Source of the DNA: Candidatus Magasanikiibacteriota bacterium
GTDB taxonomy: Bacteria > Patescibacteriota > Patescibacteriia > Magasanikbacterales > UBA922
Direction of reading: 5' to 3'
Length of the DNA stretch: 64,000 nucleotides
Assembly: GCA_014729395.1 (NCBI GenBank)
Contig: WJJZ01000002.1
Span: 673 to 64,672 of the forward strand
Below, piece by piece: positions 4,744 through 23,652 of this stretch; within the stretch, counting starts at the first letter, position 1; each line of letters starts with the position of its first letter. Below the pieces are notes generated by a model. That model was not told the origin of the DNA. It was given only the letters and a program-made list of their open reading frames with translations, and searched no databases. The position numbers were made by a program, and so were the translations under genes.

Positions 4744-4845
4744 ATTATTTAAAAGGAGGATTCAAGGAGGAATCTTCCTCAGTTTTTAAAATATTTGAAG
4801 ATTGAGGAAGCATCACGAATGGGTCGTGATGCAAAAGGTTTTAAA

Positions 4846-5183: not shown

Positions 5184-5220
5184 AAACCGGTCATTCTAGG
5201 TGATCGCATACGTTCTTTCA

Positions 5221-5262
5221 ACACACAGGCACACATCCTAGACCCTGTGTGCCTCTACTTTT
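5221..5262 (+). terminator. Conserved-loop terminator hairpin T1 (GGCACACA-TCCTAGACCC-TGTGTGCC plus a T-rich tail)
   Basis: Member of a family of 5-6 hairpins. The loop TCCTAGACCCTG is invariant and the stems show compensatory changes. A conserved block TTCTGAAAGCG lies at 5285-5295. Confidence 0.65.
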
Positions 5263-5535
5263 AGAGATTGTAAATATTTATGATTTCTGAAAGCGTTTTG
5301 ATTTTGAAAAAATTGAAGCGTGTGATCGTTTTAAAAAAACCGTCTGACAAGGGCGGATGAAAATATAGAGAAAAGAGACCTTGGGCAGCCCTGCCCGGTT
5401 GGTTGTGTTACTAAACCTAAAAGTTATAGCGCACAGCAAGTCGATTTAGTTCGGCCGAGCAGGGTGGGTATGCCTCGACAGATGTCGGGGTAAGCGTTGC
5501 CGTAAGGCGCGCTACCGCTGCTTGAGGAGTCCAAG

Positions 5536-8500
5536 ATGACGAAGTCGAAAAAAAAGGGTTCCTGCAAGCCTTCGAGTGCGGGAATCAATGATTTGCCAAT
5601 CGTTGATTTTAAGGATGAGATCATGGGGAGTAGCGCCCCCTACATCATTGTCGAAGCCGAGACCGGCTCCGGCAAGTCGACTATGGTGCCCCAGTGGTTC
5701 CATGAGCTCGACATGTCGGTGCTCGTGACCGAGCCGTTGATTGAGACGGTAATCGGTACGAGCGAGTACGTGGCCCAGCTCATGGGCTGCGAGTTCGGCT
5801 CGACGGTCGGTTATCGTACGGGCAGTAGCCGGTGCGACAGCCGGGAGACTGATGTGCTTTTTTGCACGGACGGTCTTGCGCTCGTGCGCGAGTTGTCGGG
5901 ACACAATCGTTTCGACGTGCTCGTCATCGACGAGCTCCACGAGTGGAATACTAATCAGTCCACTCTGGAGGCCTGGGCGTGGAAGCATCTTCAGGCGGGC
6001 GATAGCCCGTTCCAAAAGATCGTGGTGCTGTCGGCCACTTTGAACTCGGACGAGCTCTCGCGCAAGCGGGGCAATGCTCCGGTGTTCAAGGTTCCCGGTC
6101 GACAGTTCCCGATCGAGGATCGGCGTGCCGGTTCGTCGATCGAGGCGGACGTGAAGTCGCTCGTCGCCGAGGGGCACGACGTCCTGGTCTTCCAGCCTGG
6201 GGCAAACGAGATCCGTGAGACCATCCAGACGCTCGAGCGTATGGAGGTCAATGCGGAGCTCATCCCGTTTTACGGGAAGCTCAGCCGGGAGGACAAGACC
6301 AGGGCGTACCGGTCGTACGGTCGTTCCAAGGTGGTGGTTTCGACCAACGCTTTGGAGACCGGCCGAACACTTGTGCCGTCACCCGGGCGCAAGCTCGCGG
6401 TCGTTGACTCCGGGCTCGAAAAGCGAGTGGAGCTCGACAATGATGGAATCGAGGGTTTGTACCTGGAGCCCATCGCCAAGGCTAAGGCCATGCAGCGTCG
6501 CGGTCGCACGGGTCGCGTTGGTGAGGGGATCTATATTGATCATTGTCCCTCCGCCGGCCGTCCGGCGTACCCCGTACCGGAAATTCTCCGGACGCGACTC
6601 GACCAGACCGTTTTGCGGTTGGCGTGTCATGGGTACGACGCGACCGAGCTTCCCTTCTTCCACGAGCTCGACATGAGCGTCATCGCGGAGGCCAAGCGGG
6701 CTCTGCAGGCGCTCGGAGCGATGCGGGAGGATGGAGACGTGACCAAGACGGGGCGTCTCATGTCCCGTCTGCCGGTCTCGGTCGGTCAGGCGCGGATGAT
6801 TATCGAGGCGGACAAGCGTGGTGTGGTGGACGATGTGATCACCATCGCCGCGATCTTGAACGTCAAGGGCATTTGTGACCGCACCGGAGCGTGGCGGGCG
6901 TACACCGTCGAGAAGCGTTCCGATGTTTTGGTCGAGCTGGACCTCTGGCAGGCCGCTCGTGGCAAGCGGAATCGCGAGCTGCGGGACATGGGGATCTTCG
7001 CCAAGGATTACCAACGAGCACGGCAGATCCGCCGCAAGCTCGTGGACGTCTTGCGACAGCATCGCGTGAAGCTGGGTTCGTCCGGCGATCGCGAAGAGAT
7101 CCTCAAGTCGGTTTGCGCCGGTATGGTCGACCACCTGTACAAGTTTTCTCATACAGACAGGATGGGGAACTGGTACGTAAATGGTGGGTCGTCCACTGCG
7201 CGGTTGCTTGGCAACCAGAGTGTGGTGGATGGCGGCCCGGACTGGCTGGTCGCGATTGGGTTCAATGTGCCGACCCGAAAGGGAGGCACACTCCCGATCG
7301 TCACGCAGGTGACGGCGGTTGAGCCCATGTGGCTCGCCGAGGTCGCTCCACAGCTGGTTGAGGTCAAAACCGGTCTCTCCCCCCGGTATGACCAGGAGAA
7401 GGACCTCGTGACTTCGGTCACCGAGATGTACTTCAACGGTCAGAAGGTGCGGGAAGAGAGGGTTGATGACCCGACTCATCCGGAGGCTGCGAGGCTTTTC
7501 GCCCAATATCTGGCAAGCCGTAACGATGTCGAGCCAATGTGTTCGAATTGTCGTCAGGCAAACCGGATGAAAGAGCTCAACATTCGGGCCGGCGAGGACA
7601 TCTTCCCGGTACCCGACATGGCGAGCTTCTACCAGGAGCGACTGAATGGTGCTCGTTCGATCCAAGAGATCGAGCCGGGTACCAGCCTCCGTTTGCCCAC
7701 CCTCGACGAGGAGCTCGTCAAGATGGTGATGGATGAAAATCCTGATACCATTCAACTCCTCGGAGAAGAGTTGACGGTGGAGTATCGGGCGCCATATTAT
7801 GGCCAGCCCAGAGCTCCGCGTGTGAAGCTCACGGATGAGCTCGTCAGCACGAATCGCTGGCTCGAGCTTCCGGACGAGGGAGTGTGGCTCCCGAGCGGTC
7901 GCTCAGTAGAGCTGGTGGTGTCCTTTGGGCACTACAATGAGCTCTCTGGGACCGACATCCCGAAGTTGAAGGTTGAGATGAGAGATTATCTCAACCGGAA
8001 GCAGTGGGATTCTTGGGTCAAGCCCGAGATCGAGATTCCGGATCTGTCGGCCGATGACGCCGTCGTCCCGTTTGTCACCAAGGTCTATGGGACCTGTGTT
8101 ACAACGGGTGACGAGCTCATGGCCTACGGTACAATAGCCGTGAACACGAGTCGCTGGTATGCAAGTGATCCGCTGTTCAAGGCCATGTGGTACCGCGATT
8201 TGATCGCGGCCCAGAACGCCGCCGACGCCTCCGCCGAGAAGCTCGTCGAGAAAAAAGATGAGCTGAAAGCGGCGAGGGCGCTCGAGCTGGCGAAGACCGA
8301 GGCTGAGGCCGCGCGCAAGGAGCTCCAAAATCTCAAGGGTCGTGAAGACTGGGAAGAGCTGGAGTACGACTTGCGGAGTCGAGTTAGCGACTTGCTCTAC
8401 CGCTCGTTGCCGCGCTCCATCGATGAACTTCGAGAGGATATTGAATCCACCAAGGCACTGATTGCCGAAGTGGAGAGTGCACTCGAGAAGTTCGAGAACG

Positions 8501-9507
8501 AGCGTGAGGCGGAAGAACAGCGCCTGCTCGAGGCCGAGGAGCGCGGAGAAATCCTGCGCGACTTCGAAGCCTGGCATCGCCGGGGCGGTATGACCGGCAA
8601 CGGAGACGGCTGGGTGATACGGCCGGACGGCAGCCTCCGCGACCGTGACAGTGATACAGTGCCACGCTACAAGCACGATGGCCAGTATCACTGGGACATG
8701 GTCAAGCCGGAGGAGCTGGCTCTCAGCTGGCGCTGCAGCACCAGGCGCGACGTCGACGGCACGAGCGACTTTAAAGTCGTGAAGGTGCCTGTCGACGGTG
8801 TGACGTCGGAGCAACTGCGCCGGGTGGAGGAGATCGAAGACGGTATCGGTGCAAGCCGTGGCGCTTTCGGCCTCCACGCCGAGATCACCCGCCGCAACGA
8901 GGAGCGTCTCGAGGCCTGCCGTGAGGCAGCTCTCAATGCTCGGGTGCGCGGTTCCCAGATCCTACGGAAGTTGCCGGAGACCTTCAGCTGGTTGAAGCTT
9001 GCCGGTGACGGCGTTCTCAACCTTGAGCACTATGTGGAGGACAGGAATGTCTTCCGCTACGTCAACTGGGCAGCAGAGTACGTGGGAGTCTGCGACAACC
9101 GCGACGCCTTTCTTCTCTTCGAGACAACCGCGGCCGATGGCAAGTTGCAGTTCGTCGTATATGAAAAATACGGCTCGAGCGACAACCTGGCTGTCCGCTG
9201 GCGGGAATTCACGGAAGAGGAGCTCGCTCAGCAGGCCGAGCATGAGACGCCCCAAGGCGACGGCCATTTCGTCGAGCGCTCCACCCGCCATTTCGCTTGC
9301 GATTGTGGTGGAACGACTCGGATAACCAAGTCCGAGTGGAAGCGCTACCGGCGAGGTGAGGTGCTGGAGCTCACCTGCACCCACTGCGGAGCTACCGGCA
9401 CTGTCTGCAAGGAAGCGGACGAAGAGCCGGAGGCGAAGCAGAACGGGAACGGCTCGAGCGGAGGCGGCGCCTCGATGGCCGATCTCATGGCCAAGTTCAA
9501 TCGCTGA
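5536..9507 (+). CDS. DEAH-box (HrpA/HrpB-like) ATP-dependent helicase with HA2 domain and long C-terminal extension, 1323 aa
   Basis: Walker A AETGSGKST, the DEAH box VIDELHEW, SATL, TNALETG, QRRGRTGR and an HA2-like block RLMSRLPVSVGQARMII...IAAILN are all present. The C-terminal roughly 600 aa has predicted coiled coil (residues about 890-1010) and a CxC...CxxC zinc knuckle near the end. It is not the DUF3418 tail found in E. coli HrpA. Confidence 0.85.
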   Translation: MTKSKKKGSCKPSSAGINDLPIVDFKDEIMGSSAPYIIVEAETGSGKSTMVPQWFHELDMSVLVTEPLIETVIGTSEYVAQLMGCEFGSTVGYRTGSSRCDSRETDVLFCTDGLALVRELSGHNRFDVLVIDELHEWNTNQSTLEAWAWKHLQAGDSPFQKIVVLSATLNSDELSRKRGNAPVFKVPGRQFPIEDRRAGSSIEADVKSLVAEGHDVLVFQPGANEIRETIQTLERMEVNAELIPFYGKLSREDKTRAYRSYGRSKVVVSTNALETGRTLVPSPGRKLAVVDSGLEKRVELDNDGIEGLYLEPIAKAKAMQRRGRTGRVGEGIYIDHCPSAGRPAYPVPEILRTRLDQTVLRLACHGYDATELPFFHELDMSVIAEAKRALQALGAMREDGDVTKTGRLMSRLPVSVGQARMIIEADKRGVVDDVITIAAILNVKGICDRTGAWRAYTVEKRSDVLVELDLWQAARGKRNRELRDMGIFAKDYQRARQIRRKLVDVLRQHRVKLGSSGDREEILKSVCAGMVDHLYKFSHTDRMGNWYVNGGSSTARLLGNQSVVDGGPDWLVAIGFNVPTRKGGTLPIVTQVTAVEPMWLAEVAPQLVEVKTGLSPRYDQEKDLVTSVTEMYFNGQKVREERVDDPTHPEAARLFAQYLASRNDVEPMCSNCRQANRMKELNIRAGEDIFPVPDMASFYQERLNGARSIQEIEPGTSLRLPTLDEELVKMVMDENPDTIQLLGEELTVEYRAPYYGQPRAPRVKLTDELVSTNRWLELPDEGVWLPSGRSVELVVSFGHYNELSGTDIPKLKVEMRDYLNRKQWDSWVKPEIEIPDLSADDAVVPFVTKVYGTCVTTGDELMAYGTIAVNTSRWYASDPLFKAMWYRDLIAAQNAADASAEKLVEKKDELKAARALELAKTEAEAARKELQNLKGREDWEELEYDLRSRVSDLLYRSLPRSIDELREDIESTKALIAEVESALEKFENEREAEEQRLLEAEERGEILRDFEAWHRRGGMTGNGDGWVIRPDGSLRDRDSDTVPRYKHDGQYHWDMVKPEELALSWRCSTRRDVDGTSDFKVVKVPVDGVTSEQLRRVEEIEDGIGASRGAFGLHAEITRRNEERLEACREAALNARVRGSQILRKLPETFSWLKLAGDGVLNLEHYVEDRNVFRYVNWAAEYVGVCDNRDAFLLFETTAADGKLQFVVYEKYGSSDNLAVRWREFTEEELAQQAEHETPQGDGHFVERSTRHFACDCGGTTRITKSEWKRYRRGEVLELTCTHCGATGTVCKEADEEPEAKQNGNGSSGGGASMADLMAKFNR

Positions 9508-9635
9508 CAATTCAACCGGCCTGACCACAAGAAAACAGGGCCGGATAAAAAATAATATGTTTTCTGCGGAAAAACCGGCGGCCGTCCCAATAGGGAATAG
9601 AGCCGGTTTACATATATGTTCTTTTTTGGTAATTT

Positions 9636-9665
9636 TGGGGACAGGACTGAACATCCTAGTCCCCA
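9636..9665 (+). terminator. Variant of the conserved-loop hairpin (TGGGGA...ACATCCTAG-TCCCCA), T6
   Basis: It shares ATCCTAG with the T1-T5 loop. It lies 130 nt downstream of the helicase stop. At 9574-9612, an AAACCGGC/GCCGGTTT hairpin and a T-run precede it. Confidence 0.35.
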
Positions 9666-9737
9666 CCCTTCACTACTTATTTAAAATTTAGATAAGTGTT
9701 GAAGGGAAATTGGTTCCCTTCAGCAGAGGGAGGTGTC

Positions 9738-10016
9738 ATGAAAAGAGAGATAGTTGTCGCGGACAGGGACTTTGAAGTGTACCGACCGGAGCGCCGGTAC
9801 TACCGCCTAGATCGTAGGCACTGGGATCTGGAGCCTGGTACCCGGGTGACCGTGAAGGTGTGGCGGAAAAAAGGTCGCTACAAGATTCTGAGTGCGGTCG
9901 TTGTTGAATTTTTTTACTGGTGTCAGTGTGGGGTTTGTGACCCCACCTATTTCAAGGCCGCTATGCTGAACCGCCATTTCGACGGTAAGCTGAAGCGAAA
10001 GGATACAGACTATTAG
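9738..10016 (+). CDS. Hypothetical small protein, 92 aa
   Basis: GGGAGG lies 5 nt upstream of the ATG. GC-rich. Contains CQCGVCD. Confidence 0.4.
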   Translation: MKREIVVADRDFEVYRPERRYYRLDRRHWDLEPGTRVTVKVWRKKGRYKILSAVVVEFFYWCQCGVCDPTYFKAAMLNRHFDGKLKRKDTDY

Positions 10017-10026
10017 AAAACAAAAA

Positions 10027-10157
10027 AACCAAGGCCCGACTTGCCTGTCTGCTTTACAAAGTGGTGAAGAGATTGGCAGGTGTCGTGTTGCCTGAATCAA
10101 CAGGCAAGCTTGGGATTTTCCCAGGTGGAGCTACACTGGTTTTGAAAGGGGTAAGAG
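10027..10157 (+). promoter_or_regulatory. Type-1 leader element, diverged copy 2
   Basis: The same architecture is kept with compensatory stems: TTGCCTG-aatcaa-CAGGCAA and TGGGA-ttt-TCCCA. GAGCTACACTGGTTTT is conserved. An RBS and the ATG at 10158 follow. Confidence 0.65.
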
Positions 10158-10640
10158 ATGAAGAAAATCACGGACGCTTGTAACGAGCAGAGCTCAGTGG
10201 TCATCCAGGTGGCCGGAGGGTACATGAAGTGGTACCCGGCAGATGAGCAGAGGAGAGTGGAGTTCTACCTCCAGGGAATCGAAATCGATCCCCGGGTTCA
10301 GGCGGTGGATTTGCTCCTTGCCATGAACCAAGACGATGACATGGTGTTATGTAGCATCAATTGTCCGTCATTGGTACTTCCAATGGAAGTGATCGAGGAG
10401 AACGAACTCCTCATCGCCGATGGTGCTGTCTGGTTCAGGCGACCGTCCAGTGAAGGTGGTGAGCGCTACCCCGAGCCACCATCGAGATTGCGGTACACGG
10501 TCAAGGCACCTGGGGGATTTTCTCCGTGGGGTACGACCAACTGCCTCGAAGAGGCGCAGAGAATCCAACAAAAAGCTCTTGAGGAGGGTGTTGAGGACAT
10601 CGGTATCCGGGAAAATTCGAGTGGCAAATATCTAGGGTAA
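10158..10640 (+). CDS. Hypothetical protein, 160 aa
   Basis: Preceded by the type-1 leader and followed by T2. GC-rich. Confidence 0.5.
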   Translation: MKKITDACNEQSSVVIQVAGGYMKWYPADEQRRVEFYLQGIEIDPRVQAVDLLLAMNQDDDMVLCSINCPSLVLPMEVIEENELLIADGAVWFRRPSSEGGERYPEPPSRLRYTVKAPGGFSPWGTTNCLEEAQRIQQKALEEGVEDIGIRENSSGKYLG

Positions 10641-10669
10641 TGAATGTCGTTAGAAAAATTTTTAACCTC

Positions 10670-10712
10670 CGGGCACACATCCTAGACCCTGTGTGTCCAT
10701 TCTTTCAAAGAT
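10670..10712 (+). terminator. Conserved-loop terminator hairpin T2
   Basis: GGCACACA-TCCTAGACCC-TGTGTGTCC plus TTCTTTC. A TTGAAAGCAC block follows at about 10731. Confidence 0.65.
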
Positions 10713-10863
10713 CATAATAATTTGTGGTTTTTGAAAGCACCGTCTACTTGTGTTAGGCGGTGCAAGAAGCTTTGTTAAAAATATCTTTGCAGCCTCTAAT
10801 TATTTGATAATTAGAATCTCTCTCCGCTGCAATCTATATTTTTGATAAAAGCAAAAAATAAAA

Positions 10864-10900
10864 TCCCGCTTTGGCTCTAGTCCACAGCGGGGTTTTGTTT
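10864..10900 (+). terminator. Intrinsic terminator at the right edge of GC island A
   Basis: CCCGCT...AGCGGG stem plus TTTTGTTTT. Composition switches to AT-rich immediately after. Confidence 0.5.
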
Positions 10901-10964
10901 TCATATTTATTTTGCTATTATTAAACTAATCTTATTTTGATCAATTTATATTAAATTATAAAAT

Positions 10965-12305
10965 ATGAGAGAAGATGTTACATTAAACAAATCAGCAGCA
11001 AGATTTAATTCTGATATTCCGGAAATTGATAATGACAGAGAAAACTATCTGCAGGAAGTAAAAAATAATAGGAAAATATTAATCAGAGATATGGCAGCTG
11101 ATGATGAACTTTCCGACATTAATCCGGACAAAATGCTAGCTAAACTTCAAACTGATTGGCTTGAGAAAATTAGCAAAGAACAAAAAGATTTGATAGCCGG
11201 TCATGTTGATTTGGATTTTATTGAAAAAAGCGTTTTTAGTTATGATTACGAAGAACTTGTTTTGCATGTTTTGCTTTTAAATCAACTGGCAAAGGAATTT
11301 TATATTATCAGACCGTTTTCATGGAAAAGTGAGGAACTTGGTTTGTTTGATGAAGAGCTTGAAGAATATAATGAAAAAAGAGAAGGGATTTCAAGTAAAT
11401 TTTATGAGATCAAAGAAATAGTATTGGCCAAAGCTTGTCAGCTGGCATCTTTTCAGGCCCCTGAATTTAGCTATGGTTTGGATGAGGATGGTGGTACTCC
11501 TATTTTATATTTTGATTTACCGGGTTATGGTCAGTTTAGTTTTCACATGCCAAATATTAACCAACCTTATAGATCTAATGAACATATTGCAAAACTCTAT
11601 AAAATTCTTGATATACCCAAGTATCATGGAGACTGGAAACAAAGAAATAAACGGCCTATATCTCGAATGACAACAGAAAAAGCCGAAGAAATAATTGCTG
11701 AAGGGGAACATATTGTGTCATTGGAAGATATTGAGCAGTATCTCAGTGAAAGAGAAGATATTAACCCCAAAAAAGCACACGATTTATATTTTAGGGCAAT
11801 GGCCCATCCGGATTTCCATAAAAATAAAGAGAAAATTGATGAATTACTTTTCAAACATGCGCCCACTGTTCCCGGAGCTTTGTCCCAAGCCTATCTAGAT
11901 GGTTTTGATTTGCCCTATAAGTATTATTCAAAAAAAATTAAGAAACGTGAACCATGGATGGATCATCTATATCCAACTTATCATGATATAATTTTTTATA
12001 TTGAAGAGTTAGATGCCTTGTTGGATTTTGCACAAAAAAATCAACCAAACGAAGAGTTAAAAGAGTCGACATTTTATGATCTTGAAGAATTGGAGCAACA
12101 AAAAACAAAAGTAGAGACTGATACGAATTTGGTGAAACAAAAATTAAACAGAATATTAAAACCGGCCTTACTTTTTTATCTGGAAGACGATAATCGTTAT
12201 GACGTCCCTCTGAGAAGAAAGATATACAACAAATTAGAAAAATTACTGGAAAGGTTTAATATGGAATTAGGCGATTACTTGACCGGGGATCAATTTGTCG
12301 GTTAA
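10965..12305 (+). CDS. Hypothetical acidic protein, 446 aa (AT-rich, host-like codon usage)
   Basis: Long uninterrupted ORF with no recognisable motifs. Confidence 0.6.
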   Translation: MREDVTLNKSAARFNSDIPEIDNDRENYLQEVKNNRKILIRDMAADDELSDINPDKMLAKLQTDWLEKISKEQKDLIAGHVDLDFIEKSVFSYDYEELVLHVLLLNQLAKEFYIIRPFSWKSEELGLFDEELEEYNEKREGISSKFYEIKEIVLAKACQLASFQAPEFSYGLDEDGGTPILYFDLPGYGQFSFHMPNINQPYRSNEHIAKLYKILDIPKYHGDWKQRNKRPISRMTTEKAEEIIAEGEHIVSLEDIEQYLSEREDINPKKAHDLYFRAMAHPDFHKNKEKIDELLFKHAPTVPGALSQAYLDGFDLPYKYYSKKIKKREPWMDHLYPTYHDIIFYIEELDALLDFAQKNQPNEELKESTFYDLEELEQQKTKVETDTNLVKQKLNRILKPALLFYLEDDNRYDVPLRRKIYNKLEKLLERFNMELGDYLTGDQFVG

Positions 12306-12331
12306 TAAATGGTAGGTTCCAAGAGTTTTTT

Positions 12332-12661
12332 TTAGTTCAGCTTCAAATTATTTTTTCTAATAATCAAATCCAATTTTTTTTCAGTTTTGTCTTGTCTAAG
12401 AGCAAGAGCGGTATCATTTTTTACCAGAAAATCAACATGCTCAGTTATTTCAAGCCTAAGTTCATTTAAATCCCTTCTGGTAGCCATGGTATTGTGAATT
12501 TCATCAAGTTCTCGGTGAATTGACGCAATATCGTCTTTAGTAGCCATGTTCTTGATATCGTCTTTAGTAGCCATGTTTGCCAGGTCATCTTTGTTAGCGG
12601 CATTTTCACTCATAAATTGAATGATCTCATAGACGTCTTTGATTGTAGGATCTTTTTTCAT
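12332..12661 (-). CDS. Coiled-coil repeat protein, paralog 3 (about 109 aa; NMATKDDI repeats)
   Basis: N- and C-terminal blocks near-identical to paralog 2. An in-frame 27-bp tandem repeat lies at 12521-12575. The upstream promoter region is shared with the other copies. Confidence 0.7.
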   Translation of the reverse strand: MKKDPTIKDVYEIIQFMSENAANKDDLANMATKDDIKNMATKDDIASIHRELDEIHNTMATRRDLNELRLEITEHVDFLVKNDTALALRQDKTEKKLDLIIRKNNLKLN

Positions 12662-12744
12662 AATAAAATTATTTATCAAATAAATTATATTAATTATCAT
12701 ATCAAAAAGCAAATGAAGTTTTGATAAAAAAATTATAAAATTTA

Positions 12745-12787
12745 TGTGAGTAAAAAATTAAACAAACCCCATATAAGAGGTTTGTTT
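12745..12787 (-). terminator. recA intrinsic terminator (minus strand)
   Basis: AAACAAACC-ccatataaga-GGTTTGTTT, followed on the minus strand by a T-run. Confidence 0.6.
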
Positions 12788-12820
12788 GAAGTAATAAATT
12801 TTTGATTACTTATTGCAGTA

Positions 12821-13885
12821 TTATTTATCAACCGTTTCTTTTTCTCCAGGCTTACCCTTTTCCTCTTCAGGTGCTTCACCTCTTTCAACGGCTTCCCAAA
12901 TTTTCTTTTCAATTTTTTTCATCATTTTTGGGTGTTCTCTTAGAAATAGTTTTGCTTTTTCTCTACCAACGCCGAGTTTTTCTTCTCCAAAACTATATGT
13001 ATTACCCGATTTATTGACGACCTTGTGTTCAATTCCGGAATCAAGCAAATCACCTGATATGGAAATTCCTTCATTGTACATGATATCAAATACGGTTGTT
13101 CTAAATGGTGCAGCCACCTTGTTTTTTACCACTTTTACTTTTACGCGATTCCCAATTACCCGGTCACCTTGTTTTATTTGGGCAGAGCGACGGACTTCTA
13201 TCCTAACAGAAGAATAAAATTTCAGAGCATTACCACCGGTAGTGGTTTCGGGGTTGCCAAAAAACACCCCTATCTTATGTCTGGTTTGATTTATGAAGAC
13301 TACCGAAGTCTTGGTCTTACTGACAATGCCGGCCAGTTTTCGAAGAGCTTGACTCATAAGACGAGCTTGCAGGCCCATGTGAGAATCTCCCATCTCACCT
13401 TCGATTTCAGCCTTAGGGACAAGCGCAGCCACTGAATCTATCACGACCACATCCACAGCATTTGACCTAACCAGAGTTTCCAGGATTTCCAAGGCCTGTT
13501 CACCGGTGTCGGGTTGGGATATTAGCAAGTTATCTACATCCACACCGATTTTTCTGGCATAATCCGGATCAAGAGCATGCTCGGCATCAATAAAAGCGGC
13601 AATGCCATCTTTTTTTTGAACTTCTGCGATAATATGTTGGGCCAATGTGGTTTTACCACTGGATTCTGGGCCAAATACCTCAATAATTCTACCTCTTGGT
13701 ACACCTTTTACACCAAGGGCGATGTCAAGCGAGATTGAACCGGTAGAGACCGCTTCCACTTGCATGGCGCGGGCCTCGGAGAATTTCATAATTGAACCAT
13801 CACCGTATTTTTGTTTAATTTGACCAATGGCGGTTTCAGCCGCTTTAAATTTGGCTTTTTGTTCATCGGTTTGTTTTTTGGGCAT
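12821..13885 (-). CDS. recA: Recombinase RecA
   Basis: Walker [10 protein letters not shown] and canonical RecA blocks across 354 aa. Confidence 0.97.
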
Positions 13886-13955
13886 AGTGATCTTGAATTA
13901 ATGTATAATTTTTTATTATCTAAATTAGAGATTGGTGATTAGAGGTCAGAAATTA

Positions 13956-14348: not shown

Positions 14349-14451
14349 TCTCCAGTCTCAAATCTCTAATTTTTATTCTTCACTCTTTCTTTTTATTTTC
14401 AATCACTACAACTCTATCACAAACCACATAAAATTTCCCTAAAATTAATAT

Positions 14452-14486
14452 AAAGGACCAAAAAAGAGGGGATTGCGCCCTCTCTT
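14452..14486 (-). terminator. Intrinsic terminator downstream of the 14565..15251 gene (minus strand)
   Basis: AGAGGGG-attgc-GCCCTCTC hairpin, with a T-run on the minus strand. Confidence 0.5.
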
Positions 14487-14564
14487 AGTGATATATTACT
14501 TTTTTTAAAAAATGGTGTCAAATAAATTCAATAATAATTCTCACAAATTAAAATACAAAATGAT

Positions 14565-15251: not shown

Positions 15252-15323
15252 ATTTTATAATCCTAACGTTCATCGAACCTTGGCAACGAAATAATGACAG
15301 AATTAATAGATAAAAATTAACAA

Positions 15324-17768: not shown

Positions 17769-17984
17769 AGTGCGTATATTGTATCATATTAGTTTGGTAC
17801 TGAAAATAGGAAAACAGCGTTGTTTTTTGCGGGGGGAAAGTATATAATATTAGGGATTGAAGATTATTGACTGGTGATTGGAAAATAATAGTCTGGAATA
17901 GCGATCGAGAATAATTTAAAAACCAACAATCACTAATCTCCGGCCTCTAATAATCAATATTTAAAAATAATCTAAAAAATACAT

Positions 17985-18752
17985 ATGCAACGTTGGAATA
18001 ACTATCTACAATCACTGGGTCTTTCGGAAAATGAAGCTAAAATTTATCTACACACTTTAAAAAAAGGCCAGCAGACTGTTCAACAGATTTCCACGGGAAC
18101 AAACTTGTCACGAGTAACAGTTTATGCGGCAATTGACACTCTAATCGAAATGGGGCTTATCAGCAGTGTGCAAAAAGGAAAAAGAAAATTGTTTTCCGCC
18201 GAACCGCCGGAGAGGATAGTGTCGGTTGCTGAGACAAAAGTAAAAAAAATGGAAAACATGATAAATGAGATGTCTTCTCACCTACAGGAATTAAAATTGG
18301 CTCAAAGCGGTGACAAACCGGTGGTTAAGTTTTTTGAAGGACCGGAGGCATACAGGATTGTTAACGAAGATTTAATTGAAACTAAACCAAAGGAAATATA
18401 TGAATTCGGGAACATTGAAGAGCTTCAGAGGATTTATAGTGGAGAGGATAAAAAAATATCTGAAGAAATTATAGATAAGTTAGATCAGTTTTTTAAAGGG
18501 TCTGATATTAAGAGAAGGAGTATCCATGTTGGTAGTCATGATCCAGAAAGATTTGTTGATAAAGGAGACGTTCAGAGAGTTTTTTTGGATAAGAATAAAT
18601 ATAAGTTTTACGGTGATATTTTTTTATATAAAAATAAAATATGGCTGTCCAGTTTTAGGGGCAAACAGATTTCAATTTTAATTGAAAGTGGATTACTATA
18701 TGATACCCTTAAAGCATTATTTGATATTTCTTGGCGTTCATTAAAAAAATAA
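17985..18752 (+). CDS. TrmB-family transcriptional regulator (HTH)
   Basis: N-terminal wHTH LSENEAKIYLHTLKKGQQTVQQIS...VTVYAAIDTLIEMGLI. A paralog lies at 51428-52192. Confidence 0.7.
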   Translation: MQRWNNYLQSLGLSENEAKIYLHTLKKGQQTVQQISTGTNLSRVTVYAAIDTLIEMGLISSVQKGKRKLFSAEPPERIVSVAETKVKKMENMINEMSSHLQELKLAQSGDKPVVKFFEGPEAYRIVNEDLIETKPKEIYEFGNIEELQRIYSGEDKKISEEIIDKLDQFFKGSDIKRRSIHVGSHDPERFVDKGDVQRVFLDKNKYKFYGDIFLYKNKIWLSSFRGKQISILIESGLLYDTLKALFDISWRSLKK

Positions 18753-18800
18753 GACCCAAGCCACATTGTAAAATATGACTCGGGTCTGTCGAACTGGCTA

Positions 18801-19250
18801 CTAGTCAGTCGGGATGGGTCCGCCGACCCAATCCTCTGCGCTTTCGCCTCGCTTTTTTAATAGTGTGCATATTCTCATACTCCCATTTCTCCTTCTCCTT
18901 TCGGGTCGGTTTAAAGACCCTTGCTTATTGAAACCCCATTGTTTTTGGGTTTCCACCAAAAAAGGATATTGGGAGTATGCGATCGATCCTCTCCTTGTGA
19001 GAGGTTTTTTTGGTCTATCACCATCCTTTTGTGGATATGGCAGAATGACCAAAAAAAATATTTTCGATCCTTGGTTGCCGAGATTGAAGTTCCCGGCAAA
19101 TTTGGCCACCGCACTTCGGTGGTTATGTTTCGCATCCTCCATTTTTATCCCTCCTTTTTGAAGGGGAAACCATATCTCATCTACCACATGCAAGATGAGA
19201 TTTACATATTTGGAAAACCGAGGGGTCTTTTCCGATCTTCCAAATAACAT
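18801..19250 (-). CDS. Hypothetical ORF of atypical composition (could be non-coding)
   Basis: Open frame only. Several frames are open on both strands here. No motif found. Confidence 0.25.
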   Translation of the reverse strand: MLFGRSEKTPRFSKYVNLILHVVDEIWFPLQKGGIKMEDAKHNHRSAVAKFAGNFNLGNQGSKIFFLVILPYPQKDGDRPKKPLTRRGSIAYSQYPFLVETQKQWGFNKQGSLNRPERRRRNGSMRICTLLKKRGESAEDWVGGPIPTD

Positions 19251-19401
19251 ATAATAATACCATAAAAAACTTAATTTGTCAAGGATAGCTTTACAATTTA
19301 AATTCCTAGTTTAAATATAAGTGTTTAATCTTGCTTTACATATAAATTTAGCTAAATTCAGCTAAATTTCATTATTTTACAAAAAAACAGTAAAGCAGCT
19401 C

Positions 19402-19430
19402 TTGACAAAATTATTAAAGTATGCTATTAT
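19402..19430 (+). promoter_or_regulatory. Near-consensus sigma70-type promoter (TTGACA-17-TATTAT)
   Basis: Exact -35 hexamer, 17-nt spacer, and a -10 matching 5 of 6 positions. Confidence 0.6.
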
Positions 19431-19434
19431 TATA

Positions 19435-19453
19435 TGTTCATCAAATATGAACA
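19435..19453 (+). promoter_or_regulatory. Operator-like perfect palindrome TGTTCAT-caaat-ATGAACA overlapping the predicted +1
   Basis: 7-bp perfect inverted repeat placed 5-8 nt after the -10. Confidence 0.5.
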
Positions 19454-19849
19454 GAATCATTCAAGAATTTATTTCTTGGAATCAGGCCCGGAAAAGCGAG
19501 CATACTCGATGGGACAAATTCATTTTCAGCCCAGAAAGAGCAGCTCAATATTTCGGCTCTTAAAAAACTGTAAATCCTGTAATTTTGACGCCTAAAAGGA
19601 TAAACAAGCTTTGGCAAGTTTATTCATGTCAATTCCTTACTTTATTTACGGTTTCTTGCCACCCGGGCTTTGTTCCAAGAAGTAATTATCATGCTTGTCG
19701 TGAATATGGAATTTATTATTACAATGTATATATTTTTCGTCTTGGCTTGCAGTACTCTAGTAAGAGTATAAAGAGCCCGATTACTGCCCCTTTCTTATTG
19801 ATTTGTTTTAAATGTCGATATGAATGGGACAGTAATTTCAACCAAAAAA

Positions 19850-19953
19850 AATCAAGGCCCGGTTCGCTGACATGCGGACGACGCGTCGCTTGAATCAACA
19901 AGCGATCCCGAAATTACTCGGGAGGAGCTACACTGGTTTTTAAAGGAGGAAAG
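19850..19953 (+). promoter_or_regulatory. Type-1 leader element, copy 3
   Basis: ATCAAGGCCCGG...GTCGCTTGAATCAACAAGCGATCCCGAAATTACTCGGGAGGAGCTACACTGGTTTTT then AAAGGAGGAAAG then ATG. Confidence 0.7.
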
Positions 19954-20070
19954 ATGGAAAGAACTAATATTCGGGACGAGACCGTGATGTTCGAAGAGAC
20001 CATCACCGGCGCTTGCCTCGTGGCAGGTGCATGGGGGGCGTTTCTCGCCCTCGTTTTCCTGGTCTTCTAG
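19954..20070 (+). CDS. Small ORF, 38 aa, with C-terminal hydrophobic helix
   Basis: AGGAGG RBS directly after the type-1 leader. It was absent from the ORF track because it is shorter than 60 aa. Confidence 0.4.
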   Translation: MERTNIRDETVMFEETITGACLVAGAWGAFLALVFLVF

Positions 20071-20236
20071 GCCGGGGGAACCTTGTCCCAAAAAACCCCC
20101 GACGGACTTTACATCCGATCGGGGACATTACTGAAATCCGGATTAGTCCGGGTTTGAGTAATGACACAGACAAATCGATCATCTGTTAACGGAGGGGTGA
20201 TCGGTTTTTTAATTGCCAAAACAAAAAGGAGAGGAC

Positions 20237-20581
20237 ATGAGCGAAAAAAGTTTTACCTGCCCAATCTGCAAGTTTTCGACAACGATCGAAAAAGCTTGGG
20301 TACCGAGCTTTGATTTCATCTCCAGTCAAACCGGTAAGAATCCGGTGAGGCTGGGGGATCTGAAGTGTTTCGCGGTTTGTCGTCGCTGTGCGGGAGACCT
20401 GCGTCGGGAACTGAAGATGAGATATTACCGCTTCAGTGATTCAGCGGAGCGGATTCGGAAAAGAGAAGTTAGACAGAGGGCGACACGGCGCAAGAAGCGC
20501 CAAAAACGTACCGCAACAAAGTTCAAGGATTTATTCTGTGCCAAGGATGGCAAGATAATTCCAATTCAGAAAACCTCATGA
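20237..20581 (+). CDS. Small zinc-ribbon protein with basic C-terminus (114 aa)
   Basis: RBS AAAAAGGAGAGGAC-ATG. The same RBS context serves the next gene. Contains CPICKF...C...CRRC. Confidence 0.55.
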   Translation: MSEKSFTCPICKFSTTIEKAWVPSFDFISSQTGKNPVRLGDLKCFAVCRRCAGDLRRELKMRYYRFSDSAERIRKREVRQRATRRKKRQKRTATKFKDLFCAKDGKIIPIQKTS

Positions 20582-20597
20582 CAAAAAAGGAGAGGAC

Positions 20598-20876
20598 ATG
20601 TCTAGGACATGGCGCAGCACCTATGCAAAGCCGGGGGTGTCAAAAAAAACCGGCCAGCGTAAACTCGACAATGATCGCCGACGGCAGCTAAATAAACGTT
20701 GCCCAGAGTGCGAGGCAAGGCAATGTATATGCCAAATATTGAGTCGGCAAAATGTTGATATAGACGTAATTAATGATTGTTGGTATTTTGATGGGTTTGA
20801 AGAGACGGCCGAAATTGATTATGAAATCGACTGGAGTCGATTCGATGAAATATTCGAATTCATAAAGAAAAGTTGA
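20598..20876 (+). CDS. Small Cys-rich protein (92 aa), paralogous to the N-terminus of 22404-22892
   Basis: MSRTWRS...NDRRRQLNKRCPECEARQCIC compares with MSRTRRW...NEKRRADRKWAVRNPSCPDCGRFRCEC. Confidence 0.55.
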   Translation: MSRTWRSTYAKPGVSKKTGQRKLDNDRRRQLNKRCPECEARQCICQILSRQNVDIDVINDCWYFDGFEETAEIDYEIDWSRFDEIFEFIKKS

Positions 20877-20892
20877 GAACGCGCAAATATTG

Positions 20893-20984
20893 GGGGGAGC
20901 TCTGAAATTATCAGGGCGCCTTTTCTTGGAGCGTTTCTATAAGCGAGCCAAGATAAGGCATAAACAAACAAAAAGGAGGAAAAA
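20893..20984 (+). promoter_or_regulatory. Type-2 leader element, copy 1
   Basis: GGGGGAGCTCTGAAATTATCAGGGCGCCTTTTCTTGGAGCGTTT...AAGGAGG-ATG. A second copy lies at 22910-23003. Confidence 0.55.
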
Positions 20985-21326
20985 ATGGAAGAAAAACGCA
21001 AGGCAGGTCTGGCACGTCTTAAAAAAGAATCGATGAAGAGATTGATTGATAAATTTGATGATGAGAAGTTTATCGAAAAAATTGCAAAGTCTTTGGCTTT
21101 TTCTCATCATAATAAATTGAGACAAAAGCAATATGGAAGAATAAGGTTTTTAAGAGGTGTTATTGATAAGCCAACCGAGCGAATTCGCCGATATAATAGG
21201 CATCGATTCCATTATTCAATATATGAGATAGATGCCAATGATATTGAATATTTCGGACGCCGATTATGGGCCGAATGTCTACGCTTGCGTTTAGCACGCA
21301 AGCAGGAATGGCTTGCAAAGCAGTGA
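20985..21326 (+). CDS. Hypothetical basic protein, 113 aa
   Basis: Preceded by the type-2 leader and followed by T3. Confidence 0.55.
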   Translation: MEEKRKAGLARLKKESMKRLIDKFDDEKFIEKIAKSLAFSHHNKLRQKQYGRIRFLRGVIDKPTERIRRYNRHRFHYSIYEIDANDIEYFGRRLWAECLRLRLARKQEWLAKQ

Positions 21327-21353
21327 TATAATAATTTCTAGGGATAAAACAAT

Positions 21354-21392
21354 TGGTATATATCCTAGACCCTGTATACTTTTTCTTTCAGA
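21354..21392 (+). terminator. Conserved-loop terminator hairpin T3
   Basis: GGTATATA-TCCTAGACCC-TGTATACT plus TTTTTCTTTC. An ATTCTGAAAGCAC block follows at 21411. Confidence 0.6.
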
Positions 21393-21458
21393 GCGTATGA
21401 ATTTATTCATGTATTCTGAAAGCACCATGAATGCATCGTGGTGTGGAAGAGAAACTCT

Positions 21459-21567
21459 AATACCGAGGCCCGGTTCGCTGATCGGCGAATGTCGCGTCGC
21501 TTGAATCAACAAGCGATCCCGAAATTACTCGGGAGGAGCTACACTGGTAAAAAGTTTTAGGAGGGTT
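21459..21567 (+). promoter_or_regulatory. Type-1 leader element, copy 4
   Basis: Same sequence as copy 3 up to CTACACTGG, then AGGAGGG RBS and ATG at 21568. Confidence 0.7.
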
Positions 21568-21933
21568 ATGAACAAGCATAATAACGAACAGTGCACATTA
21601 GAGGAAGTCGTGGTGGATTTTTTGGATGCATTTACAAAAATGACAGAGATAGATTTTTTGTTGGACTATCTATGGGCCGTAGTAGAGAAAAACGGCGATC
21701 AAAACCGCGATGAACCAATTATAATCAGTCTAAGCTGTGATAATTGGTTTGGTGAAGAAGTCTGCGATGAATATGATGGTATTGATTTGGCAAATGACAT
21801 ATTGGGATTATATTATTTAATTTCAACTCTGCCCAACAATATTTTAAAGCATTTTCCGCGTCATGTTGATCTGACAAAAGTTGCGGAAGAGAATTGGACG
21901 ACTTTGCATAAGTGGGCGATGTATTCAAGATGA
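21568..21933 (+). CDS. Hypothetical acidic protein, 121 aa
   Basis: Preceded by the type-1 leader. Confidence 0.55.
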   Translation: MNKHNNEQCTLEEVVVDFLDAFTKMTEIDFLLDYLWAVVEKNGDQNRDEPIIISLSCDNWFGEEVCDEYDGIDLANDILGLYYLISTLPNNILKHFPRHVDLTKVAEENWTTLHKWAMYSR

Positions 21934-22072
21934 AAATGCTTTGGTGAGAAATATTTTTTGGAGATTGGTTTTCAGAAACGTAATCAATCTCCGGTCTAAT
22001 TTGTCTTTATTATTTATAATGAAGACAAGGAGACATTTTCACAACTGTCCTTAACATAAAGGAGGATTCGCT

Positions 22073-22234
22073 ATGAATAAAGAAAAAATAAAAGAAATTC
22101 GGAGACTGCTTAGAAAAGCAAATGAAGAGAGAAGACTGGAACTCGAGAATTTTGATGATGATGCATTTGAAGTAAATGAATATGGTGAATTTGTTAATTT
22201 GGAAGAAGACGAATCGAGCAGTGAAGAGGATTGA
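22073..22234 (+). CDS. Small acidic ORF, 53 aa (MNKEKIKEIRRLLRKANEERRLELENFDDDAFEV...)
   Basis: AAGGAGG lies 7 nt upstream of the ATG. Preferred over the low-complexity antisense ORF at 22051..22299. T4 follows. Confidence 0.4.
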   Translation: MNKEKIKEIRRLLRKANEERRLELENFDDDAFEVNEYGEFVNLEEDESSSEED

Positions 22235-22294
22235 TTTGTTATGCGGGGGTTGATAATGACTACAATCCCGGCGTTATTTGTTGTGAGTTTTTCT

Positions 22295-22332
22295 GGCAAG
22301 TATTTCAGACCCTGCTTGCCTCTTCTTTCAAG
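22295..22332 (+). terminator. Conserved-loop terminator hairpin T4
   Basis: GGCAAG-tatttCAGACCCTG-CTTGCC plus TCTTCTTTC. Loop variant TTCAGACCCTG. Confidence 0.5.
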
Positions 22333-22403
22333 CTAATAATCATAAGTTTTTGATTTGAAAGAAGGATATCCGTTTTTTAAAAACTCAAAAAAAAGGAGTT
22401 GCC

Positions 22404-22892
22404 ATGAGTCGGACGAGAAGGTGGTCGAATGAGGACCACATAGACGCAATGGATGGGGTCAATCAAAAAAGATTGGCCAATGAAAAGCGCCGGGCAGACC
22501 GGAAATGGGCGGTCCGTAATCCGAGCTGTCCGGATTGCGGTCGGTTCCGCTGTGAATGTAATACAATTTATTTTATTGATGAGATGTTAATAAATAATTC
22601 TGATGATGAATTTCTGCAAAGGGAATTTTTAGCGACCGTATTTGCCGTGGTCCCGTTGCATGCGGGTCCTGATAATAGATCTGATGAAGATGTACCGGAT
22701 AATGTTATTTTTTTTGAGCATCATTTATTTAAATTGGATGATAGGCTGTTAAGTATGTTCGTCACTGACACGACCTGTCAATGTTGTGGCAGAGATGACT
22801 GCGGCTATTTTGTCGGCAATGGCAATTCCGCCTGTTTGGGTCTTTGGTTAAAAATAGACCTTCGAACAGGCGAGCTGATCACTGCGATGTGA
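22404..22892 (+). CDS. Cys-rich protein, 162 aa (two zinc-knuckle clusters)
   Basis: AAGGAG RBS. Contains CPDCGRFRCEC and CQCCGRDDCGYF. GC content along the ORF is mosaic. Confidence 0.55.
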   Translation: MSRTRRWSNEDHIDAMDGVNQKRLANEKRRADRKWAVRNPSCPDCGRFRCECNTIYFIDEMLINNSDDEFLQREFLATVFAVVPLHAGPDNRSDEDVPDNVIFFEHHLFKLDDRLLSMFVTDTTCQCCGRDDCGYFVGNGNSACLGLWLKIDLRTGELITAM

Positions 22893-22909
22893 TCAGCCAA
22901 ATGAAAATT

Positions 22910-23003
22910 TAGGGGGAGCTCTGAAATTATCAGGGCGCTTTTTCTTGGAGCGTTTTCAAAGCGAATCAAGACAAGGCACAGATAAACAAAACAAGGAGGA
23001 AGC
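22910..23003 (+). promoter_or_regulatory. Type-2 leader element, copy 2
   Basis: AGGGGGAGCTCTGAAATTATCAGGGCGCTTTTTCTTGGAGCGTTTT...CAAGGAGG-ATG. Confidence 0.55.
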
Positions 23004-23573
23004 ATGAGCGCAGAAACAGAAATCAGATTTTTTCGTATGAACAACGGGCAGATTTGGGCCGCAGTAGTCAGAGGGGGTATGACCTGCGACGAAGAATACG
23101 GCCGTTGTCTCAGTATTATTTTTGCTGGAAGTTACGACAAGGTCAAAGCATGGTACGGTCGACAGTCCAAAATGGACAAGTTTGATCCGGACTATGTTTG
23201 GACCGAGCATGGCGGGCGTCTTCCCAGCCAGTCAGAGCTTCAAGAAAAACCTGTTTCTTTTATCGGCAGCGAGGTCTGGCTAGAACTGGACAACGGCAAT
23301 CCATTTCCCGATTGTCGCGACCTCAAGCGGCCAATTTGGCGGGTTTTTGAGACTGACTTGGCCATCGAGTGTCGAGTTCTGGGGGAATCTCTTTACTTTG
23401 CGGAAGCTTGGAACTTGGCGCAAACGTATGCCATGCAGCAACCCGGAGATTGTAGGCTGCGGTTACCGGAGCGGTTTTACAGACCGGCTTCCGAAAAGCG
23501 TAGGGCGGAGACCTTGGAAGGACAGGAGATCGCCATGCCCAAGAATTTGCCGGATGGCTTGGACTGGGCGTAA
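23004..23573 (+). CDS. Hypothetical protein, 189 aa
   Basis: Preceded by the type-2 leader and followed by T5. Confidence 0.55.
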   Translation: MSAETEIRFFRMNNGQIWAAVVRGGMTCDEEYGRCLSIIFAGSYDKVKAWYGRQSKMDKFDPDYVWTEHGGRLPSQSELQEKPVSFIGSEVWLELDNGNPFPDCRDLKRPIWRVFETDLAIECRVLGESLYFAEAWNLAQTYAMQQPGDCRLRLPERFYRPASEKRRAETLEGQEIAMPKNLPDGLDWA

Positions 23574-23616
23574 AGGCCAATAAATTCTAGATAATAGCAA
23601 CATCTTTCAACCCACG

Positions 23617-23652
23617 ATAAGTATTCTAGACCCTGCTTATCAAATCTTTCTG
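23617..23652 (+). terminator. Conserved-loop terminator hairpin T5
   Basis: GATAAG-TATTCTAGACCCTG-CTTATC plus AAATCTTTC. Confidence 0.55.

Follow-up and report, generated by a model that had tools for sequence, protein, structure and literature searches.

What might a hairpin be doing after one gene after another in a reduced bacterial genome, when its loop stays nearly the same and its stem does not? The candidate phyla radiation (CPR, or Patescibacteria) comprises bacteria with tiny genomes, about whose gene regulation and acquisition of accessory genes little is known. We met this question in a 64-kb chromosomal stretch of a Candidatus Magasanikbacteria metagenome-assembled genome (contig WJJZ01000002.1); the whole stretch that was analyzed is called the window below. 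Three of its ORFs (5536-9507, 12821-13885 and 22404-22892) match NCBI proteins from such a genome with 100% identity. A preliminary description had listed in it a family of terminator hairpins with a shared loop and different, compensating stems. The family proved real, with five full-length copies (H1 to H5) and two weaker ones at 4761 and 9634, and each hairpin turned out to be part of a larger structured unit, the hairpin module H. Our preferred interpretation, to which we give a probability of roughly 0.45, is that H punctuates RNA between cistrons, with its loop recognised by a factor, and doubles as portable homology for the exchange of gene cassettes.

Anatomy of the H module and constraint on its loop

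H spans about 115 nt and consists of an upstream UUCUAGG motif, a first hairpin (HP1), a spacer of 1-4 nt, a second hairpin (HP2) and, often, a third (HP3) (Table 1). The five HP1 hairpins carry a 10-nt loop, YYCUAGACCC, on covarying stems of 8-9 bp (GGCACACA, GGGCACACA, GGUAUAUA, GGCAAGUA and GAUAAGUA in H1 to H5, respectively). The loop had been described as invariant and 12 nt long; it is nearly invariant, but the final UG of the 12-mer, TCCTAGACCCTG, belongs to the HP1 stem, which leaves 10 nt for the loop proper. Within the window this 12-mer occurs on the plus strand only, in three exact copies (5236, 10680 and 21363) and one copy with a single mismatch (23624), against 0.001 exact occurrences per strand expected from composition; AGACCCTG was counted five times on the plus strand and not once on the minus strand, against 0.45 expected. 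The loop motif is thus not one that is common at random within the window.

Folding of the copies, together with their alignment, showed that HP2 pairs 16-17 bp around a 4-nt loop; the U-rich UCUUUCARAG forms its 5' arm and the TTCTGAAAGCRC block (5285, 10729 and 21414) its 3' arm. The T-rich tail reported after the first hairpin is therefore present but folded into HP2, and the downstream block is not the separate conserved feature that it had been taken for. HP3 often follows HP2 directly, as GCAYCAYGAAU...UCGUGRUG or, in H2, as a different pair of arms. A further downstream element, CCGTCT...GGCGG, was found in only two copies (5340 and 10740), and that of H2 falls within its third hairpin. 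All copies lie on the plus strand, 23-128 nt downstream of plus-strand stop codons, and in four of the five copies that have it the upstream motif (UUCUAGA in H5) lies 8-11 nt past the stop codon.

We built a covariance model from the six full H copies, which themselves score 70-84 bits. It added the weaker modules at 4761 and 9634, the second of which had been listed as a degenerate copy: its first hairpin does differ (loop ...ACAUCCUAG), but a good HP2 follows. In 40 kb of housekeeping sequence there was no match to the model above 10 bits (E about 5 or worse). No Rfam family matched the window at gathering thresholds, and at E<=5 the only match between 4000 and 24500 to overlap a module was a chance-level one to mir-392 (E 4.2; 23637-23693).

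The structure is supported by covariation in a six-sequence alignment, for which 500 shuffles and slid pairing partners served as controls. HP1 is 100% paired, with changes on both sides in 4 of its 8 pairs, and HP2 has a conserved base and a variable but paired interior, 7 of its 17 pairs being compensatory. Over the whole module 92.5% of cells are paired (81% in shuffles, 33-52% with slid partners) and compensatory changes are seen in 11 of 25 pairs. In percentage paired, in compensatory pairs and in covariation score alike, the alignment exceeds every one of the 500 shuffles. Fold z-scores of the modules range from -2.9 to -6.2. The pairing is also strand-specific: there are 2-5 G·U pairs per module on the plus strand but 0-1 on the minus strand, and the minimum free energy is 3-15 kcal/mol lower on the plus strand in 10 of 10 modules. 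All seven copies in the window, as well as three in a related locus described below (L010), are in sense orientation after a stop codon. The sense-strand G·U pairs and the folding energies favour an RNA element, though a hairpin of top-strand single-stranded DNA would be asymmetric in the same way.

Constraint is strongest on the loop. Averaged over pairs of copies, the loop is 88% identical and the HP1 stem 66%, while within HP2 the base reaches 75% and the interior 51%; in the four most divergent copies the corresponding values are 83%, 60%, 69% and 41%. Between H3 and H1 the stem has C-to-T and G-to-A changes, whereas the C-rich loop has none. The tetranucleotide CTAG is scarce both in the window, where 64 sites were observed and 224 expected (a 3.5-fold deficit), and in the related locus L032, with 5 observed and 45 expected (9-fold), yet this avoided word is kept in both the H loop and the upstream motif. 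(The CTAG sites of L032 mostly fall in conserved non-coding hairpins.) Because the loop is more strongly constrained than the stems, it is probably read by a sequence-specific factor, as had been suggested from the conservation pattern. The CUAG of the loop presumably fits the YUNR pattern of a U-turn. A search for a trans-acting partner of the loop on the sense strand of the window gave no more than an 8-mer complement, at chance level, that overlaps the start codon of the open reading frame (ORF) at 20598, and a 7-mer in the D1 repeats. We rejected a pseudoknot in which the upstream UCUAGG would pair with the loop: although the sequences are complementary and one position covaries, CCC alone would be left to cross a helix of 6-7 bp, which makes the fold sterically doubtful.

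Island context and probable exchange of cassettes

Every H copy of the window lies in one of two same-strand islands, A (~4.1-10.9 kb) and B (~19.4-24.0 kb). The island genes are mostly ORFans of 33-60% GC content (52-60% in island A), and the housekeeping genes of the window (recA, ftsK, rpoB, rpoC, pnp, ftsH, thrS, miaB and ruvC) have ~33-43%. Zinc-ribbon ORFs of the islands lie at 4950-5183, 20213-20581, 20598-20876 and 22404-22892. There is one promoter-like site upstream of each island, at 4111-4138 and at 19402-19430, the latter matching at 11 of 12 positions and carrying a TG extension. H1, H3, H4 and the 9634 copy precede same-strand genes, some of them only 32-39 nt away, rather than ending a transcription unit, and a consensus scan found no promoter-like site between these modules and the genes downstream. 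Nor did it find a plus-strand promoter conserved in the modules, the single match (21353-21380) lying inside HP1 of H3 and being absent from the other copies. Island A is closed by a canonical terminator at 10864-10895, 125 nt past the end of the H2 module, and island B by a long hairpin with a U-run that follows H5 before 23873. Given the downstream same-strand genes, the lack of an intervening promoter and the terminators at the island ends, the modules look intercistronic.

We had one other genome in which to compare cassettes, since H was found in a single related assembly, CAYSPW010000013.1 (loci L010 and L032). Its label reads 'uncultured Gammaproteobacteria', yet its RecA shares 89% identity with that of the window and lies in the same synteny. 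The related locus is collinear with the window over 2-10.7 kb. Its H module matches H1 at 80% identity over 115 nt and H2 at 91% over 81 nt; HP2/HP3 modules are also conserved, as is the minus-strand coiled-coil gene, at 50% amino-acid identity. The genes in between have fared differently: the GNAT proteins share only 29% of their amino acids, a 77-aa zinc-ribbon ORF of the window is matched in place by DUF3228, and the 1323-aa HrpA-like helicase by MoxR, VWA and a 453-aa protein. Overall, nucleotide identity of the modules is 80-97%, compared with 29-66% amino-acid identity for the flanking proteins common to both genomes. The earlier proposal that the modules are conserved units delimiting gene cassettes thus holds in this comparison, the modules being kept at 80-91% while the genes between them are unrelated, and cassette content does differ at the boundaries in the only related genome with H. 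The window itself offers similar cases, in which D19 and the L leader (described below), intergenic pieces that are nearly identical from copy to copy, link ORFs that are unrelated. As the only sequence common to otherwise unrelated cassettes, the module would offer portable homology.

Two likely traces of past exchange can be made out. A trailer of 150 nt (9475-9624 in the window, 7409-7560 in L010), in which the two genomes agree at 84% of positions, comprises the last nine codons (MADLMAKFN) and the 3' untranslated region of two unrelated genes, those of the helicase and of the 453-aa protein. Since the MADLMAKFN tail is native to the helicase family, the alignment suggests that the helicase was replaced in L010 and its 3' end left behind, with a breakpoint near 9475, inside the 3' end of the gene and ~130-160 nt upstream of the nearest hairpin. 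The L010 module, moreover, is a mosaic, H1-like in its flanks and H2-like in its core, as gene conversion among dispersed H copies would leave it. Among those window ORFs that were scanned against Pfam, and in the gene set called for L032, no integrase turned up. Together with the absence of attC core sites and a breakpoint off the hairpin, this makes the boundary of a site-specific recombination system, one of the roles first proposed, unlikely.

These elements can be joined into a tentative mechanism. Each island would be transcribed as a polycistronic RNA from its one upstream promoter, and the modules would punctuate this RNA, HP1 displaying its loop to a sequence-specific reader, either a protein or a complementary RNA. 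HP1 and HP2 together might attenuate read-through, provide a double-stranded processing site and a block to 3' exonucleases, or both, so that neighbouring cistrons could be expressed and decay independently. Cassettes would be swapped or gene-converted at the modules by general recombination. Of these parts, we infer polycistronic islands with an intercistronic module with the most confidence, followed by exchange homology and, last, by reading of the loop and uncoupling at the RNA level.

To map the distribution of H we used a pattern of 20 bases spanning the loop and both HP2 arms. Among 185,579 species genomes there were 11 matches, of which one, that in CAYSPW010000013.1, had the hairpin; among JGI metagenomes there were 12, none with the hairpin. 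In loci L033-L037, whose RecA is 85-89% identical, the ftsK-rodZ-recA synteny is kept while both the islands and H are absent. With a single other genome carrying H among those scanned, the family is, on these searches, limited to a narrow lineage. Helicase homologues occur widely in Patescibacteria, and in L038, L040 and L041 they lie in GC-rich same-strand islands. The helicase-homologue loci L038-L041 have the same gene families, with DUF3228 beside GNAT in L038 or beside Csx3 in L041 (both adjoining a TrmB regulator), and analogous two-hairpin trailers, although the H sequence is absent. In L041 a GC-rich hairpin and then a long AU-rich hairpin follow the genes, and what is conserved is the stem foot (GGRCGA...UCGYCCGAU), not the loop. 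The two-hairpin order thus seems to be a property of the islands, and the invariant loop its lineage-specific form. Island cargo has 52-69% GC content and housekeeping genes on the same contigs 33-43% in five independent assemblies (the window, L032, L038, L040 and L041); because helicases of this family are found across Patescibacteria, a recent arrival from a high-GC donor does not readily account for the difference.

A phage origin of the element was considered and rejected, there being no nucleotide match in 50,697 phage records and the context (recA, ftsK, rpoB, rpoC, pnp and ftsH) being chromosomal. Patterns for H and for the L leader gave 8 matches in IMG/VR, none with the hairpin; a PHROG search with ten island proteins returned only a weak, generic DNA-helicase match; and no relatives of the helicase were found in viral contigs.

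Known systems and competing explanations

A parallel to the exchange role comes from the promoter-early stem-loop (PeSL) regulatory cassettes of T4-type phages, for which mini-circles as well as promoter and terminator activity have been shown experimentally (PMC2839356, PMC4122927). Both PeSL and H are conserved intergenic stem-loop motifs of ~100 nt that stand between ORFans in hypervariable regions, and in both cases related genomes differ by the insertion or replacement of genes between motifs. PeSL combines linker homology for recombination with insulation of transcription, a role proposed for H by analogy. Unlike PeSL, which has a strong sigma-70 promoter and resides in phage genomes, H has no detectable plus-strand promoter and sits in a bacterial chromosome near recA, ftsK and rpoB; it also has two or three hairpins and a conserved loop. 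Repetitive extragenic palindromes (REP) and the bacterial interspersed mosaic elements (BIME) built from them are likewise repeated extragenic hairpins past stop codons, within or at the ends of operons, with compensated stem changes. REP elements protect upstream mRNA from 3' exonucleases, and a gene resembling the REP-associated tyrosine transposases (RAYT) exists in the window. However, REP occur in hundreds of copies genome-wide, in inverted pairs, flank the RAYT gene and conserve the foot of the stem (GTAG), whereas H has few copies, all in the islands (the 40 kb of housekeeping sequence has none) and all in a single orientation, is not found beside the RAYT-like gene and keeps the loop constant instead. 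With integron attC sites H shares one structured site per cassette at the ORF 3' end, a strand-specific hairpin and variable cassette content, and here too the content differs between genomes; it lacks the R''/R' core sites and extrahelical bases, its breakpoint is not fixed and its loop is conserved. Among the scanned window ORFs and the L032 genes we found no IntI, attI or Pc platform, the attC core RYYYAAC occurs in no module, and a lone GTTRRRY, in H2, lies outside the hairpins. The RNase III processing hairpins of phage T7 early mRNA, and intrinsic terminators or attenuators, resemble H in lying between cistrons of one transcript, in being specific to the sense strand and in having a U-rich stretch after the first hairpin; they differ from H in that its HP2 has 16-17 bp without an internal loop motif of the sort known from RNase III sites and its HP1 a conserved 10-nt loop and variable strength. 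In role, H is thus similar to PeSL, REP and attC, but each of them has at least one defining feature that H lacks, and H is best called a lineage-restricted new relative of known intergenic hairpin cassettes.

We weighed four other explanations. Ordinary Rho-independent terminators, made alike by recent duplication of cassettes along with their 3' ends, seem an unlikely account, even though all copies follow a stop codon at the distances given above, H1, H2 and the L010 copy have the same stem, and clusters of adjacent hairpins have been proposed as bacterial terminators (PMC8355165). Intrinsic terminators have a free U-tract of 7-9 nt directly 3' of the stem; the first 8 nt after HP1 contain 4-7 U, interrupted by C or A. 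This stretch is the 5' arm of the covarying HP2, yet it would be free until HP2 has been transcribed. Partial attenuation at HP1 is possible; a plain terminator with a free T-tail, already doubted in the preliminary description, is not supported. A terminator would also be expected to have a stable G+C-rich stem and a short loop of ~3-8 nt. The loop of HP1 has 10 nt and the hairpin is often weak, with free energies of -3.7 kcal/mol in H3, -5.1 in H5 and -9.1, -11.8 and -12.8 in the others, and a terminator scan of the window called none of the five copies. The genome's own terminators look different and sit downstream of H2 and H5. Nor do terminators explain a loop that is 83-88% identical where stems and HP2 interior are 41-66% identical with their changes compensated, and simple recent duplication is not the cause because the flanking ORFs are unrelated. 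A minus-strand promoter of sigma-70 type (TTGAAA-N17/18-TAGGAT), driving antisense RNA into the upstream cassette gene, is barely credible. A consensus scan does place such sites at 10708-10679 (TTGAAA-18-TAGGAT), 5221-5193 (TTGAAA-17-TAGAAT) and 23643-23614, but the -35-like TTGAAA is present in only 2 of 6 copies (CTGAAA, CAGAAA or CTAAAA elsewhere), the most invariant part, AGACCC, falls outside a putative -10 box that itself varies (TAGGAT, TAGAAT, TGAAAT), the 5221 site lies outside the hairpins, and the covarying stems and the G·U pairs found only on the plus strand would go unexplained.

Two alternatives remain. Single-stranded DNA sites for a recombinase or a HUH (Y1) transposase, either attC-like or REP-like and mobilized by the RAYT-like gene, would account for one module per cassette at the ORF 3' end, for content that differs between genomes and for strand-specific hairpins that tolerate G·T pairs; the functional strand is the G-rich leading-strand sequence, and a RAYT-like Y1 transposase gene is indeed present at 49628-50248. 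We nevertheless regard this as improbable, given that both attC cores (RYYYAAC/GTTRRRY) and an integrase are missing from the sequences searched, that a distance of 26 kb separates the RAYT-like gene from the H copy closest to it and that this gene is flanked by terminators rather than by H, that there are no inverted pairs of the REPIN type and no copies in the intergenic regions of the 40 kb of housekeeping sequence, that the breakpoint near 9475 is inside a gene 3' end instead of at a fixed hairpin position, and that the loop rather than the stem foot is conserved. Improbable too, in our judgment, is a selfish or neutral repeat, akin to miniature inverted-repeat transposable elements (MITEs), BOX or RUP, that spread through the islands without any host function. 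H would suit this description as a discrete unit of ~115 nt with sharp homology edges against unrelated flanks, multi-copy, intergenic, hairpin-forming and restricted to one narrow lineage. At its edges, however, we saw neither terminal inverted repeats nor target duplications, the 10 copies are all oriented alike with respect to transcription, the left edge keeps ~8-11 nt from the stop codon in four of the five copies with the upstream motif, and purifying selection on the loop together with compensated stems argues for a maintained structure.

Several points weigh against reading H as RNA punctuation that also serves exchange. Its co-transcription, attenuation, processing and loop reader are each inferred, and the element is carried by only two known genomes. 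The covariation rests on few independent events, because there are only six full copies and three of them are closely related. A hairpin of top-strand single-stranded DNA would also fit the same wobble asymmetry, as G·T pairs. A classical RNase III substrate has roughly 20 bp, about two helical turns, which is longer than the 16-17 bp of HP2, and there is no rnc gene in the window. Finally, with one breakpoint outside the hairpins, the modules may merely sit in a generally recombinogenic region.

If H does punctuate island RNA and provide homology for exchange, it would explain how genes of conflict systems are shuffled in reduced genomes without integrases, and it would constitute a new structured RNA motif, a conserved-loop hairpin with a long helper hairpin, that has a testable reader; if the copies are only leaky terminators, the finding is of local interest. 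A wider generalization, which we consider rather unlikely, is that CPR bacteria of the Magasanikbacteria type keep integrase-free cassette arrays, in which H, the L leader, D19 and a CUAG-loop leader, as a limited set of structured RNA modules, would stand between same-strand, unusually GC-rich conflict and accessory genes, a dedicated reader of CUAGACC would co-regulate or process the array, and the modules would be its recombination joints, allowing cassettes to pass from strain to strain. The cargo of such arrays may include the HrpA-like helicase, DUF3228, GNAT, mCpol/Csx3, MoxR-VWA and zinc-ribbon ORFans.

Feature coordinates and other island elements

Table 1. Coordinates of H modules and their parts in the window.
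Feature	Position	Strand	Remarks
H1 upstream motif AUUCUAGGU	5192-5200	+	9 nt past stop codon; complementary to 5' part of HP1 loop
H1 HP1	5227-5254	+	9-bp stem, loop UCCUAGACCC
H1 HP2	5258-5293	+	16 bp, A/U-rich; arms are the 'T-rich tail' and the 'TTCTGAAAGCG' block
H2 HP1	10671-10698	+	9-bp stem including one G·U, loop UCCUAGACCC
H2 HP2	10702-10737	+	followed by HP3 GCACCGUCUA...UAGGCGGUGC at 10738-10767
H3 upstream motif UUUCUAGGG	21334-21342	+	8 nt past stop codon
H3 HP1	21355-21380	+	stem GGUAUAUA/UGUAUACU, two G·U pairs, loop UCCUAGACCC
H3 HP2 and HP3	21385-21446	+	HP2 21385-21422, HP3 21423-21446 (GCACCAUGAAUGCAUCGUGGUGU); run into leader element L4
H4 HP1	22295-22320	+	stem GGCAAGUA/UGCUUGCC, variant loop UUUCAGACCC
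H4 HP2	22322-22364	+	
H5 upstream motif AUUCUAGA	23584-23591	+	covaries with H5 loop UUCUAGA
H5 HP1	23616-23641	+	stem GAUAAGUA/UGCUUAUC, loop UUCUAGACCC
H5 HP2	23646-23683	+	
Divergent module after helicase gene	9634-9707	+	HP1' 9636-9665, different loop with AUCCUAG; HP2' 9666-9706; 16.6 bits
Divergent module after GNAT gene	4761-4813	+	short hairpin and U-run, HP2-like hairpin; 22 bits

Other structured elements stand between the cassettes. The L element is a structured leader of ~100 nt right before the ribosome-binding site (RBS) of four cassette genes (4843-4932, 10071-10140, 19848-19937 and 21459-21548); the first copy, L1, comes after the 4761 module, whose HP3 is at 4812-4838. Three L copies have an identical 54-nt stretch, and in the divergent copy two hairpins are kept by compensatory changes (GCUUG/CAAGC to GCCUG/CAGGC and CCCGA/UCGGG to CUUGGGA/UCCCAGG). 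It had no match in Rfam, nor did its pattern match metagenome contigs, and it may be a candidate riboswitch or attenuator. D19 is a 52-nt piece, 92% identical between 20885-20936 and 22904-22955, that folds into the hairpin GCUCUGA-AAUUA-UCAGGGC with a U-rich tail; both copies begin at a stop codon, in each case that of a zinc-ribbon ORF (the two are weakly related), whereas the ORFs that follow are unrelated.

The GNAT gene has a leader of its own (4166-4301; 10690-10850 on the minus strand of L032), in which a long outer stem encloses a hairpin with a CUAG-rich loop, GUUCUAGCUAGA (4195-4222), with CUAGACC at the 3' side of the loop. A small hairpin comes next and then a strong terminator-like hairpin right before the RBS, and the fold z-score is -5.6. 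By BLAST this leader is 93% identical over 100 nt between the two genomes, and ~97% in the best-conserved stretch, compared with 29% for the GNAT protein. The HrpA-like helicase is preceded by a GC-rich leader of ~170 nt (5370-5535) that is conserved in L038 (~9830-10000), where the helicase is 60% identical; the shared sequence is GCAGCCCUGC...AAGUCGAUU.AGUUCGGCC.AGCAGGGUGGGUA...CUACC.CUGCUUGAGGAG.

The RAYT-like gene encodes a 206-aa Y1 transposase of IS200 type with HUH (HVH) and YHDHVIR motifs and stands between ftsH and a minus-strand ORF. It scores 28.8 bits against Pfam Y1_Tnp, above the cut-off, and 60.3 bits against NCBIfam REP_Tyr_transpos, whose cut-off is 80. Ordinary terminators flank it, no cognate repeats were seen in the window, and the H covariance model has a single match within 26 kb, which scores at chance level (10 bits, E 5.4) and falls in the coding sequence of the gene.

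Repeats also mark the surroundings of the islands. Three paralogous minus-strand coiled-coil genes (6-338, 3594-4108 and 12332-12765) have conserved upstream regions, 82-87% identical between two of them, and two of the genes bracket island A. Two 228-nt direct repeats (2257-2484 and 3274-3501), 93% identical, flank the gene of mCpol, a minimal CRISPR polymerase (2574-3080), the only window gene to match a defence model in PADLOC. Each contains a micro-ORF of 22 codons that is leucine-zipper-like; in L010 a related sequence is present, with a Csx3-like gene at the corresponding end of the locus. Just past island B, 22-nt inverted repeats (24038-24059 and 24478-24499), 95% complementary, bracket an AT-rich segment of 418 bp, which could be a MITE-like or an invertible segment.

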